From assembly GCF_045037415.1 (NCBI RefSeq), contig NZ_CP173438.1: a stretch of DNA of 64,000 nt, one strand, 5' to 3'. This document shows, piece after piece, positions 1 to 3,000 of the stretch; the first letter of the stretch is position 1; every line of letters begins with the position of its first letter. Origin of the DNA: Escherichia coli. Lineage in GTDB: Bacteria > Pseudomonadota > Gammaproteobacteria > Enterobacterales > Enterobacteriaceae. Position numbers: made by a program.

Positions 1-3000
1 AGAATGCGGCGATGGCGGCGATAACCACCACGATTACGATTACCCAACGGGATTTATAACTGCCTTTCATCGTTAAGAGTTTCTCTTCCTGAAACGTTTC
101 GCGGAATGATACTAGTGTAGCCAGCCAATAAGGGAGAAAAATGGAGGAATTATGAAACACTGTCGGGAATCGTCTGAATGACGGGCACTTTTGCGAGCAC
201 GCATCCAGTAATAACACATGAAACTATTTTATCTACGCGTTAGCGATAGACTGCTTGCATGGCGAAAGGAGATAAGCCGACGATTTCAGCGGGACGCTGA
301 AACGGGAAAGCCCCTCCCGAGGAAGGGGCCATAAATAAGGAAAGGGTCATGATGAAGTGGATCATCATCGTGGTGCTCTTAGTCATAAGCTTCCCGGCTT
401 ACTAAGACTACCAGGGCGGGGGAAACCCCGCTCAACCCTCATTCCTGAAAGTATGCCTTCACGGTCCAATTGTCAATCCGCAGACTTTGCAGTCTGCGAT
501 CCTGCCAGCAAATATTCTTTGCGAGTCGTTACGCAATAATCACACTTGAAACTATTTTATCCGCAAGTCAGCGATAGACTGCATACAGGGCGAAAGGAGG
601 TAAGCCGAAGATTTCAGCGGGACGCTGAAACGGGAAAGCCCCTCCCGAGGAAGGGGCCTTAAATAAGGAAAGGGTCATGATGAAGCTACTCATCATCGTG
701 GTGCTCTTAGTCATTAGCTACCCAGCATACTAAGACTACCAGGGCGGGGGAAACCCCGCTCTACCCTCACTCCTGAAATTATGTCACTCAACCCTTGTTG
801 TCAATCTGTAAGCCCACGTTCTTGCGAGGCGAATAGCAAAATCTTCTGCGCCGCCGGGCCTAATTCTGAAAGTTTCTTCGTTTGCTCTTATTTCATTATT
901 GCAGTCGGTATGATACCGGACCTCAATAATTCTCTAAGAAAGGATTTCTTATGAGCGAACAAATCACGTTTGCCACCAGCGATTTTGCCAGTAACCCGGA
1001 ACCACGTTGCCCCTGCATTTTGCTGCTGGATGTTTCTGGTTCTATGAACGGTAGACCCATTAATGAACTTAACGCCGGATTGGTTACCTTTCGCGATGAG
1101 CTGCTTGCCGATTCGCTGGCCTTAAAAAGAGTGGAACTCGGCATTGTGACGTTCGGCCCGGTGCATGTGGAACAACCCTTTACCAGCGCCGCTAATTTTT
1201 TCCCGCCCATCCTGTTTGCCCAGGGCGATACACCAATGGGCTCTGCCATTACCAAAGCCCTGGATATGGTTGAGGAGCGGAAACGTGAATATCGTGCCAA
1301 TGGTATTTCCTATTATCGTCCGTGGATTTTCCTGATCACCGATGGTGCACCAACCGATGAGTGGCAGGCTGCCGCCAACAAAGTGTTTCAGGGGGAAGAA
1401 GATAAGAAGTTTGCCTTCTTTACCATCGGCGTTCAGGGGGCGGATATGAAGACGCTGGCACAAATCAGCGTTCGTCAGCCTTTGCCACTGCAGGGATTAC
1501 AATTCCGTGAACTGTTTAGCTGGTTATCCAGTTCGCTGCGTTCGGTTTCCCGCTCCACGCCGGGAACGGAAGTTGTGCTGGAAGCGCCAAAAGGCTGGAC
1601 GTCAGTGTGAGCTGGCGACTGGTCTATGCATCAGCCGTTGGAACGTCGCACATCAGTGCGGACTTGCCTTGCCAGGATGCCTGCCAGATACAGGTTGCCT
1701 GGCTAAATGACCAGCAGCCATTATTGTCGGTATTTGTCGCTGATGGCGCAGGTAGCGCCTCGCAGGGAGGCGAAGGTGCGATGCTCGCCGTCAATGAAGC
1801 GATGGCTTATATGTCGCAAAAAGTGCAGGGCGGGGAATTGGGGCTTAATGATGTCCTCGCAACGGACATTGTGCTGACCATTCGTCAGCGACTTTTTGCC
1901 GAGGCGGAAGCCAAAGAATTAGCGGTTCGCGATTTTGCCTGCACGTTTTTGGGATTGATTTCATCAGCTAATGGCACCTTGATTATGCAGATTGGCGATG
2001 GCGGCGTGGTGGTAGATTTGGGTCACGGTTTGCAACTGCCGCTCACGCCGATGGTGGGGGAATATGCCAATATGACGCACTTCATTACTGATGAAGATGC
2101 CGTTTCCAGACTGGATACTTTCACCAGCACTGAGCGTGCGCACAAAGTTGCAGCATTTACGGATGGTATTCAGCGACTGGCGTTAAATATGCTGGATAAT
2201 TCTCCGCATATGCCTTTCTTTACCCCGTTTTTCAATGGACTGGCGTCAGCAACGCAGGAACAACTCGATTTATTACCTGAATTGTTAAAGCAGTTTTTGT
2301 CCAGCCCGGCGGTAAACGAGCGTACGGATGATGATAAAACGTTGGCACTGGCGCTGTGGTTACCATGAAACCCACTTTATATACTGCTACTGGTGAGTGC
2401 GTTACGCCAGGCCGTGAACTGGGCAAAGGCGGCGAAGGTGCGGTTTATGATATCGAGGAGTTTGTCGAGAGCGTCGCCAAGATTTATCACACGTCGCCTC
2501 CCGCCTTAAAACAGGACAAACTTGCCTTTATGGCTGCGACAGCTGACGCGCAGTTGTTGAATTATGTCGCCTGGCCGCAGGCAACGCTTCACGGTGGACG
2601 AGGTGGAAAAGTTATCGGTTTTATGATGCCAAAAGTTTCTGGTAAAGAACCGATTCATATGATCTATAGCCCGGCACATCGTCGCCAGAGTTACCCTCAT
2701 TGTGCGTGGGATTTTCTACTCTATGTTGCGCGCAATATTGCTTCATCTTTTGCTACGGTTCACGAGCACGGGCACGTCGTGGGTGACGTAAACCAGAACA
2801 GCTTTATGGTAGGTCGCGACAGCAAAGTGGTGATGATTGATAGCGACTCCTTTCAGATTAATGCCAATGGTACACTGCATTTATGCGAAGTCGGCGTGTC
2901 GCATTTTACGCCGCCAGAGCTGCAAACCATGCCATCATTTGTCGGCTTTGAACGCACAGAAAATCACGATAATTTTGGCCTTGCGTTGCTGATATTTCAC

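Follow-up and report, generated by a model that had tools for sequence, protein, structure and literature searches.

Two tandem SibB-class ibs/sib modules form a probable type I toxin-antitoxin array between mdtA and yegL of Escherichia coli

The Ibs/Sib family of type I toxin-antitoxin systems and the occurrence of its members in tandem between mdtA and yegL are already known (Fozo et al. 2008, as related by Han et al. 2010, PMC2943612, and by the review PMC4147584), as is the fact that E. coli strains differ in how many ibs genes they have (Fozo et al. 2010). In K-12, the order is yegL-sibA/ibsA-sibB/ibsB-mdtA: the yegL-proximal sibA/ibsA (b4436/b4667) specifies a 144-nt SibA and a 19-residue IbsA (MMKHVIILVILLVISFQAY), and the mdtA-proximal sibB/ibsB (b4437/b4668) a 136-nt Sib and an 18-residue peptide. 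For K-12 sibC/ibsC, located at fau-serA, Han et al. 2010 (PMC2943612) placed the recognition region TRD1 at +46..+68 and TRD2 at +99..+115 of SibC, and described an 18-nt 5' overhang of the ibsC mRNA over SibC. Furthermore, three-unit arrays with the same intergenic region and repeat as the locus reported here occur in O157:H7 and other E. coli (Z1768, AHM8C160RI, KFu022).

We analysed a window of 64,000 nucleotides of E. coli DNA (assembly GCF_045037415.1, contig NZ_CP173438.1) and conclude with high confidence that its positions 190-804 are the E. coli mdtA-yegL ibs/sib array, made up of two tandem type I toxin-antitoxin modules. The left edge of the intergenic region is the 5' end of mdtA (1-70, minus strand; from the annotation of the 100% identical locus of E. 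coli SK1144), and its right edge is yegL, encoding a vWA-domain protein (951-1610, plus strand; from the ORF list and annotation). According to the annotations of SK1144 and K-12, the synteny is that of K-12 and the tandem units lie in the conserved location. An intergenic stretch of 851 nt is 100% identical in SK1144, and 545 records carry it at 99% identity or above; of 5426 complete E. coli genomes, 5419 gave a match to the region. Within it lies a direct repeat (family D1) of 266 nt and 88% identity, far above chance, with a start-to-start period of 328 nt: unit 1, the mdtA-proximal reference copy (190-455), comprises an upstream conserved region, ibs-1 and sib-1, and the yegL-proximal unit 2 (518-783) comprises the upstream conserved region, ibs-2 and sib-2. 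An earlier note on this DNA had reported a tandem duplication of type I toxin-antitoxin loci of the ibs/sib family in the gap from mdtA to yegL, as two units of ~330 bp each with an 18-codon ORF. Both ORFs translate as claimed, the repeat period agrees, and Pfam, Rfam, the flanking genes and RefSeq naming concur on the identity; the extent given there, 170-800, needs correction, as the repeat begins at ~190 and the element, including the -35 box of sib-2, extends to 804. The exact peptides, too, are already known: RefSeq gives both the name Ibs family toxin in genomes with 100% identity, for instance SK1144. The finding is thus correct but ordinary, because the modules are already annotated in identical public genomes.

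The ibs-1 ORF (349-405, plus strand) comprises 18 codons and a stop and encodes MMKWIIIVVLLVISFPAY (WP_012767741.1, Ibs family toxin), which is identical to the middle-unit peptide of O157:H7. The ibs-2 ORF (677-733, plus strand), of the same length, encodes MMKLLIIVVLLVISYPAY (WP_001386901.1), identical to the peptide of the sole unit in strain JNU. When padded with four in-frame upstream codons (20-residue minimum), the two matched Pfam PF13956, Ibs_toxin, with 41 and 37.9 bits, respectively, against a cutoff of 27 bits, and positions 1-19 of 19 of the profile (MMK...S[FYW]..Y; a hydrophobic peptide of 18-19 residues) were aligned for both. Rather than diverging from the Ibs family, both peptides share eight invariant columns with K-12 IbsA-E, which bears out the membership proposed in the earlier note. 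That note had named two differences between the peptides, W versus L at position 4 and F versus Y near the C-terminus; both are present, but three residues differ (W4L, I5L and F15Y). An NCBIfam scan of the padded peptides returned no Ibs model and just one sub-threshold unrelated match, a null that we set aside as outweighed by Pfam and by the name that RefSeq itself gives. Two further pairs of ORFs were rejected as genes: those of 38 aa at 218-334 and 546-662 (plus strand), which begin with different codons in the two units, ATG and TTG, at a position where K-12 has AGG, and those of 48 aa at 240-386 and 568-714 (minus strand), whose frames fall inside the structured Sib RNA.

In both units, a cis-antisense gene overlaps the whole ORF and its ribosome-binding site. 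Sib-1 (305-440, minus strand) and Sib-2 (633-768, minus strand), each predicted to be 136 nt, were delimited by alignment to annotated K-12 sibB, likewise of 136 nt. Both match the full Rfam SIB_RNA model RF00113 (1-147 of 147), at 476-334 with 136.5 bits and at 804-662 with 143.5 bits, that is, 2.4-2.6 times the gathering score of 56. Their predicted folds (-61 kcal/mol, z = -4.2, and -60.4 kcal/mol, z = -3.8) reproduce the architecture of K-12 SibB, with a closing stem, three hairpins, a single-stranded linker and a terminator. SibC shares the family, the overall fold and the antisense cover of ORF and ribosome-binding site with these RNAs, and its recognition regions could be mapped onto them by alignment columns; the Sib alignment with SibC is 57-58% identical. 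Between Sib-1 and Sib-2, 10 of 136 positions differ (93% identity), and eight of these lie in two loops linked to recognition of the target. Four fall into the P6 loop, at 358-361 in unit 1 and 686-689 in unit 2, and four into the equivalent of TRD1, the apical region of the long hairpin (Sib-1 nt 42-64, at 377-399; Sib-2, 705-727; minus strand). The equivalent of TRD2, the single-stranded J1/7 over the ibs ribosome-binding site (Sib-1 nt 92-111, at 330-349; Sib-2, 658-677; minus strand), contains a single difference, at Sib nt 110.

Putative sib promoters with a perfect TTGACA lie upstream of both genes; this hexamer corresponds to the first six positions of the Rfam SIB_RNA model and is followed, after a 20-nt gap, by TTTCAGGA. 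The sib-1 promoter (448-476, minus strand) has TTGACA at 476-471, a 17-nt spacer and a -10 box TACTTT at 453-448, with hexamers and spacing as in K-12 sibB. That of sib-2 (776-804, minus strand) combines TTGACA at 804-799, a 17-nt spacer and TAATTT at 781-776, and is of the sibA-slot type by alignment to the K-12 sibA promoter; the -10 boxes are identical to those of K-12 sibB (sib-1) and sibA (sib-2). Downstream, a predicted terminator hairpin followed by UUUCC (310-330 for Sib-1, 636-660 for Sib-2, minus strand) matches the 3' end of annotated K-12 sibB, with an identical hairpin. A generic sigma-70 and terminator scan of positions 1-1000 yielded one promoter-like site (178-149, minus strand) and no terminators; it missed the sib promoters because the -10 boxes match at 3/6 positions, and the sib terminators because the T-run is short. 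With the sib elements just below the scan thresholds, this null says little. Antisense transcription of both units is assumed from the conserved promoters and from homology.

The hairpin CAGCGGGACGCUG (287-299, plus strand; 615-627 in unit 2), seen in predicted folds, presumably marks the 5' end of the ibs-1 mRNA; its placement is deduced from the 5' overhang of the ibsC mRNA. Just upstream of it, the mdtA-yegL units have 22 nt inserted relative to ibsC/D/E, which the ibsC 5' region lacks. Conserved upstream hairpins had been proposed before; two, CAGCGGGACGCUG and GCCCCUCC...GGAAGGGGC (310-330, ~636-660), are indeed present in, and invariant between, the two units, with the refinement that the second is complementary to the Sib terminator. 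The Shine-Dalgarno region AAGGAAAGGG (337-346 in unit 1 and 665-674 in unit 2, plus strand), as read from the sequence, is invariant across four aligned units, and in folds of the assumed ibs mRNAs the Shine-Dalgarno sequence is predicted to pair with the 3' end CCCUCAUUCC. No ibs promoter could be assigned to these units, the candidate hexamers TAGACT (247-252) and GATAAG (271-276) being weak, and the motif TTTGCG.G at ~191-198, invariant in all seven aligned units, lacks a plausible -10 box to go with it.

Going by the K-12 modules that have been studied (Han et al. 2010, PMC2943612; review PMC4147584), the plus strand of each module would encode an 18-residue hydrophobic Ibs membrane peptide, and the minus strand would yield, from the TTGACA promoter, a ~136-nt Sib RNA fully complementary to the ibs ORF, start codon and Shine-Dalgarno sequence. 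First pairing would proceed via two recognition regions, TRD1 in the long-hairpin loop, inside the ORF, and TRD2 in the single-stranded stretch before the terminator, over the ribosome-binding site. Such pairing may block ibs translation and open the duplex to RNase III, so that toxin would be made only if Sib falls. We infer transcription, toxicity and repression, as well as the RNA ends, for both modules alike.

The earlier note had set the two units against K-12 sibA/ibsA and sibB/ibsB. This match holds by position; by sequence it is not one-to-one, both cores being SibB-class. Sib-1 is identical to K-12 sibB at 130/136 positions and Sib-2 at 131/136, compared with 109/143 to sibA, and both units display the features of the SibB/IbsB class, namely a 136-nt Sib, an 18-residue peptide of the form MMK..IIVVLLVIS.PAY and a core no less than 95% identical to K-12 sibB. 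Peptide 1 differs from K-12 IbsB by L4W and L5I and peptide 2 only by F15Y, and the nucleotide differences from sibB lie in the P6 loop (unit 1) or in the TRD1-equivalent loop (unit 2). Neither unit has the 19-residue peptide or the 144-nt RNA of sibA/ibsA; as both peptides are of 18 residues and the cores are 109/143 identical to sibA, the window lacks an IbsA orthologue by sequence, and comparison of cores and peptides with K-12 revealed no IbsA-type unit in its array.

The surroundings of the two cores tell them apart. Unit 1 shares with K-12 sibB the slot adjoining mdtA, the promoter hexamers and the flanks (53/55 and 113/115 identical), while unit 2 sits in the other slot and shares with K-12 sibA the upstream flank and the sibA-type promoter region (flanks 49/56 and 105/115 identical). 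Judged from these alignments, the yegL-proximal unit joins a SibB-class core to the flanks and promoter of the sibA slot, a mosaic for which unequal crossing-over or gene conversion, acting in a polymorphic array of 1-3 units, would be the best explanation. Across eleven E. coli strains, the window and K-12 counted, the arrays have 1-3 units and the cores are shuffled. For instance, the W-type peptide WP_012767741.1 belongs to the middle unit in O157 and to the first unit in KFu022, and a Y15-type core (MMKILIIVVLLVISYPAY) is also found in three-unit arrays. The window differs from these arrays in having two units and no IbsA unit, and its core order is [WIF][LLY] as opposed to [ILY][WIF][IbsA] in O157. 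Since the core of the yegL-proximal unit is IbsB-class, the label "ibsA" would be wrong for it, and annotators should avoid this positional name in the present lineage; a published AIEC toxin-antitoxin survey appears to give such a name to a 57-nt ibs ORF. Beyond correct annotation, the significance of the array is small.

Each Sib may repress both ibs mRNAs, forming a partly redundant, cross-protected pair instead of two orthogonal systems, a possibility we hold tentatively. In addition to the scarcity of differences (10/136 nt, one of them in the TRD2-equivalent region), the two RNAs are identical over 26 consecutive nt spanning the ribosome-binding-site and J1/7 region, and an engineered unbroken helix of 22 bp at TRD1 or of 25 bp at TRD2 sufficed to retarget SibC to ibsD, while non-cognate Sib RNAs repress ibsA (Han et al. 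2010, PMC2943612). Moreover, EcN has two units with identical 136-nt Sib sequences, and orthogonality is therefore not obligatory at the mdtA-yegL locus. However, the four differences in the TRD1-equivalent loop and the four in the P6 loop speak for separate recognition, and K-12 SibD and SibE have a 36-nt identical run that touches TRD2.

When the SibB-class cores of nine other E. coli strains and the window were compared, variation was concentrated almost entirely at Sib nt 42-57 (the loop region equivalent to TRD1), at nt 80-83 (the P6 loop) and at nt 110, a single position of J1/7; the remaining compared sequence, helices included, was nearly invariant, and units were reshuffled between slots. 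It is conceivable, if rather doubtful, that diversifying selection acts on the array and favours new specificities of antitoxin-toxin recognition, produced by recombination among tandem units. If so, the window pair, 93% identical and with 8/10 differences in two loops, would be minimally diverged and possibly only partly orthogonal, and would offer a natural test case for the smallest number of loop changes that keeps two cis-antisense systems apart. Likewise, the near-identical pair could serve as a convenient natural system for cognate versus non-cognate discrimination by Sib RNAs.

That these two SibB-class modules are, one or both, decaying relics, with a peptide no longer toxic or expressed and copies kept by hitch-hiking and recombination, seems improbable. 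The K-12 record does label IbsB, the closest characterised relative of both peptides, only "putative toxic peptide", the -10 boxes are weak, and the number of units ranges from 1 to 3 depending on the strain, so that individual units must be dispensable. Yet neither ORF is disrupted, each keeping its start and stop codons and its Shine-Dalgarno sequence, and both Sib genes retain the perfect TTGACA, all helices and the terminator. SibB-class core variation is confined almost wholly to loop positions and to synonymous or conservative codon sites while the helices are nearly invariant, which indicates purifying selection, and the unit cores recur at 99% identity or above in 992 (unit 1) and 1935 (unit 2) records.

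Finally, a recent strain-specific tandem duplication of one ibs/sib unit, which the 328-nt period and the 88% identity over 266 nt might suggest, is very improbable, as K-12, O157:H7 and other strains have both slots too, each with flanks of its own, the configuration recurs at no less than 99% identity in 545 records, and each core is closer to that of another strain (unit 1 to the O157 middle unit, 134/136; unit 2 to JNU, 135/136) than to its neighbour (126/136).

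The earlier note had proposed tandem ibs/sib type I toxin-antitoxin loci between mdtA and yegL, and the two peptides it gave are indeed the translations of 349-405 (ibs-1, plus strand; MMKWIIIVVLLVISFPAY, then stop) and 677-733 (ibs-2, plus strand; MMKLLIIVVLLVISYPAY, then stop). The interval is bounded by the mdtA start on the left (1-70, minus strand) and yegL on the right (951-1610, plus strand). The peptides differ by W4L and F15Y, as had been noted, and additionally by I5L, so that three residues instead of two distinguish them. Both ORFs reside in a direct repeat of 266 nt (88% identity, period 328 nt), whose mdtA-proximal copy (190-455) and yegL-proximal copy (518-783) are here called unit 1 and unit 2, and in front of each ORF stands AAGGAAAGGG, its end two bases from the ATG. 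Padded with four in-frame upstream codons for the 20-residue search minimum, peptides 1 and 2 matched all 19 positions of the Pfam profile Ibs_toxin (PF13956) with 41 and 37.9 bits, respectively (cutoff 27). On the minus strand, full-length Rfam matches to SIB_RNA (RF00113; gathering score 56) were found at 476-334 (136.5 bits) and 804-662 (143.5 bits), the Rfam scan returning no further Sib match in the 64-kb window. These family matches agree with the gene order at the corresponding K-12 locus (yegL, sibA/ibsA, sibB/ibsB, mdtA), and with the RefSeq annotation of E. coli SK1144 (mdtA, WP_012767741.1, WP_001386901.1, yegL), where both products are named "type I toxin-antitoxin system Ibs family toxin". 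The ibs/sib interpretation is thus correct, and annotation of the feature already exists. SK1144 and further strains share the 851-nt intergenic stretch at 100% identity; 545 records contain it at 99% identity or more, and of 5426 complete E. coli genomes, 5419 gave some match. Judged by these comparisons, the locus belongs to a well-studied family and is known and annotated, and its allele configuration recurs in hundreds of E. coli genomes that have been sequenced. The sole additions to the known picture are that both units belong to the IbsB/SibB class and that unit 2 combines a sibA-type slot with a SibB-class core.

Since the Rfam model starts at the TTGACA -35 box, the Sib transcripts must be shorter than the matches, and their ends were set by alignment to the annotated K-12 sibB (136 nt). 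This yields predicted 136-nt RNAs on the minus strand, Sib-1 at 440->305 and Sib-2 at 768->633, whose predicted folds are of the K-12 SibB type: a closing stem, a GC hairpin, a long hairpin, a third hairpin, the unpaired CCUUUCCUUAUUUA linker, and a terminator hairpin followed by UUUCC (-61 kcal/mol, z -4.2 for Sib-1; -60.4 kcal/mol, z -3.8 for Sib-2). A generic promoter/terminator scan of the locus reported no sib promoters or terminators.

When the units were aligned to K-12 sibA/ibsA and sibB/ibsB, as the earlier note had suggested, the sibB side was borne out for both cores, while no IbsA was found. Sib-1 and Sib-2 share 130/136 and 131/136 positions with K-12 SibB, and each 109/143 with the K-12 sibA core. 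Likewise, peptides 1 and 2 differ from K-12 IbsB (MMKLLIIVVLLVISFPAY; labelled only "putative toxic peptide" in the K-12 record) by two changes and one change, respectively, and neither equals IbsA, which has 19 residues. Segment-wise comparison separated these cores (the Sib regions) from the slots, that is, the positions in the array with their flanks. Unit 1 has flanks of the sibB-slot type (53/55 and 113/115 identical). Those of unit 2 are of the sibA-slot type (49/56 and 105/115), as is its promoter (TTGACA-17 nt-TAATTT), and yet its core is SibB-class. Moreover, each core is closer to one from another strain than to the core beside it: the unit 1 core shares 134/136 positions with the middle unit of O157, and the unit 2 core 135/136 with the only unit of JNU, as against 126/136 between the two of them. 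By sequence, unit 2 is therefore a mosaic of sibA-slot flanks and a SibB-class core.

Among eleven strains including the window and K-12, the mdtA-yegL interval holds one to three units, with core types spread differently over the slots. Naming cores by peptide residues 4, 5, and 15, and reading from mdtA to yegL, the window carries WIF, LLY; K-12 and M1 carry IbsB, IbsA; EcN carries IbsB, IbsB; O157 and AHM8C160RI carry ILY, WIF, IbsA; KFu022 carries WIF, LLW, and an ibsA-slot unit; 1428 carries WIW, IbsA; 23AR1217 carries ILY, RLW; JNU carries LLY only; and A21005-2 carries IbsA only. Such positional flanks with mobile cores fit a history of unequal crossing-over between repeats, or of gene conversion, and the window arrangement may have arisen if an array of three units like that of KFu022 lost its last core through a single crossover located downstream of that core. 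Variation of ibs number between strains has already been published, with seven Ibs genes reported in O157:H7 Sakai and, besides, duplications specific to lineages. In a survey of the AIEC strain NRG857c, a 57-nt ibs ORF was called "homologous to ibsA", a label apparently given by position. In M1 (NZ_CP010180.1), the unit at locus position 416 shows unrelated AT-rich sequence at the expected Sib terminator site, upstream of the IbsB unit, and mdtA is not annotated within the 400-nt flank, which suggests that the edge of the array was rearranged or received an insertion in that strain. In the E. coli genome searches, unit matches occurred at up to 7 places per genome, and a few fell on plasmid-labelled records (8, 5, and 7 places).

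In the K-12 members studied, the ibs ORF and its ribosome-binding site are fully covered by the complementary Sib. Pairing begins at one of two target-recognition regions, TRD1 (long-hairpin loop, within the ORF) or TRD2 (single-stranded linker over the translation-initiation region), and spreads, blocking translation and promoting RNase III-dependent decay (Han et al. 2010, PMC2943612; review PMC4147584). By analogy, the Sib RNAs of the window would cover ibs ORF and ribosome-binding site, start pairing at TRD1 or TRD2, block translation, and promote RNase III-dependent decay. Mapped from SibC, TRD1 (+46..+68) corresponds to Sib nt 42-64 (399-377 and 727-705), and TRD2 (+99..+115) to nt 92-111 (349-330 and 677-658). 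For the assumed 159-nt ibs mRNAs (287-445 and 615-773), with ends taken from the 18-nt 5' overhang of ibsC, the predicted folds pair the Shine-Dalgarno sequence with the 3' end and enclose each start codon in a hairpin (z -4.5 and -3.8), which is consistent with a full-length toxin mRNA that is poorly translatable.

Sib-1 and Sib-2 differ at 10/136 positions: nt 7 in the closing stem, nt 42, 45, 49, and 54 in the TRD1-equivalent region, nt 80-83 in the P6 loop, and nt 110 in the TRD2-equivalent linker. Read on the ibs strand, F15Y and three synonymous third-position changes (codons 13, 16, and 17) account for the four TRD1 differences, and the P6-loop block results in W4L and I5L. If M1 (unrelated 3' end) and an indel close to the 3' end in O157 unit 1 are set aside, only positions 7, 12, 42-57, 80-83, and 110 vary among the 16 SibB-class sequences collected. 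This agrees with the location of the TRDs in variable regions (Han et al., PMC2943612), and could equally reflect constraint on the helices. At 93% identity, the window pair is the most similar Sib pair compared, against 74% for SibA/SibB and 90% for SibD/SibE of K-12; EcN has two identical Sib sequences. In the TRD2-equivalent region, Sib-1 and Sib-2 also have 26 nt in common without interruption, so the sequences make cross-repression of the two modules plausible.

Upstream of ibs, a TTTGCG.G motif lies about 150 nt 5' of each start codon (191-198 and 519-526, plus strand). It is invariant in 7/7 aligned units (those of the window and K-12 A-E), in poorly conserved surroundings of A/B versus C/D/E types, and no convincing -10 partner was found; an ibs promoter of the mdtA-yegL unit type could not be placed. 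Compared with K-12 ibsC/D/E, about 22 nt are inserted in the mdtA-yegL units (261-283 and 589-611, plus strand; GCGAAAGGAG[A/G]TAAGCCGA.GATTT), directly upstream of the 5' hairpin CAGCGGGACGCTG, so the 5' end known from mapping of ibsC/D may not apply to them.

Upstream of mdtA, TTTTTCTCCCTTATTGGC (124-141, minus strand) has one mismatch to the BaeR-box consensus TTTTTCTCCATDATTGGC. No other such site occurs in the window (0.04 would be expected by chance), and this one is presumably the BaeR site already known from the mdtABCD promoter; on the same strand and just upstream of it, at 178-149, is the sole promoter-like match of the generic scan. Elsewhere, Rfam identified two JUMPstart elements (16060-16098 and 40651-40689, plus strand), an algC RNA motif (30598-30647, plus strand), three tandem naRNA4 repeats (35038-35301, minus strand), and a His leader (62721-62844, minus strand). 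Together with the ORF layout, these matches fit the interval expected in E. coli, running from mdtA past the colanic-acid and O-antigen clusters as far as the his operon.
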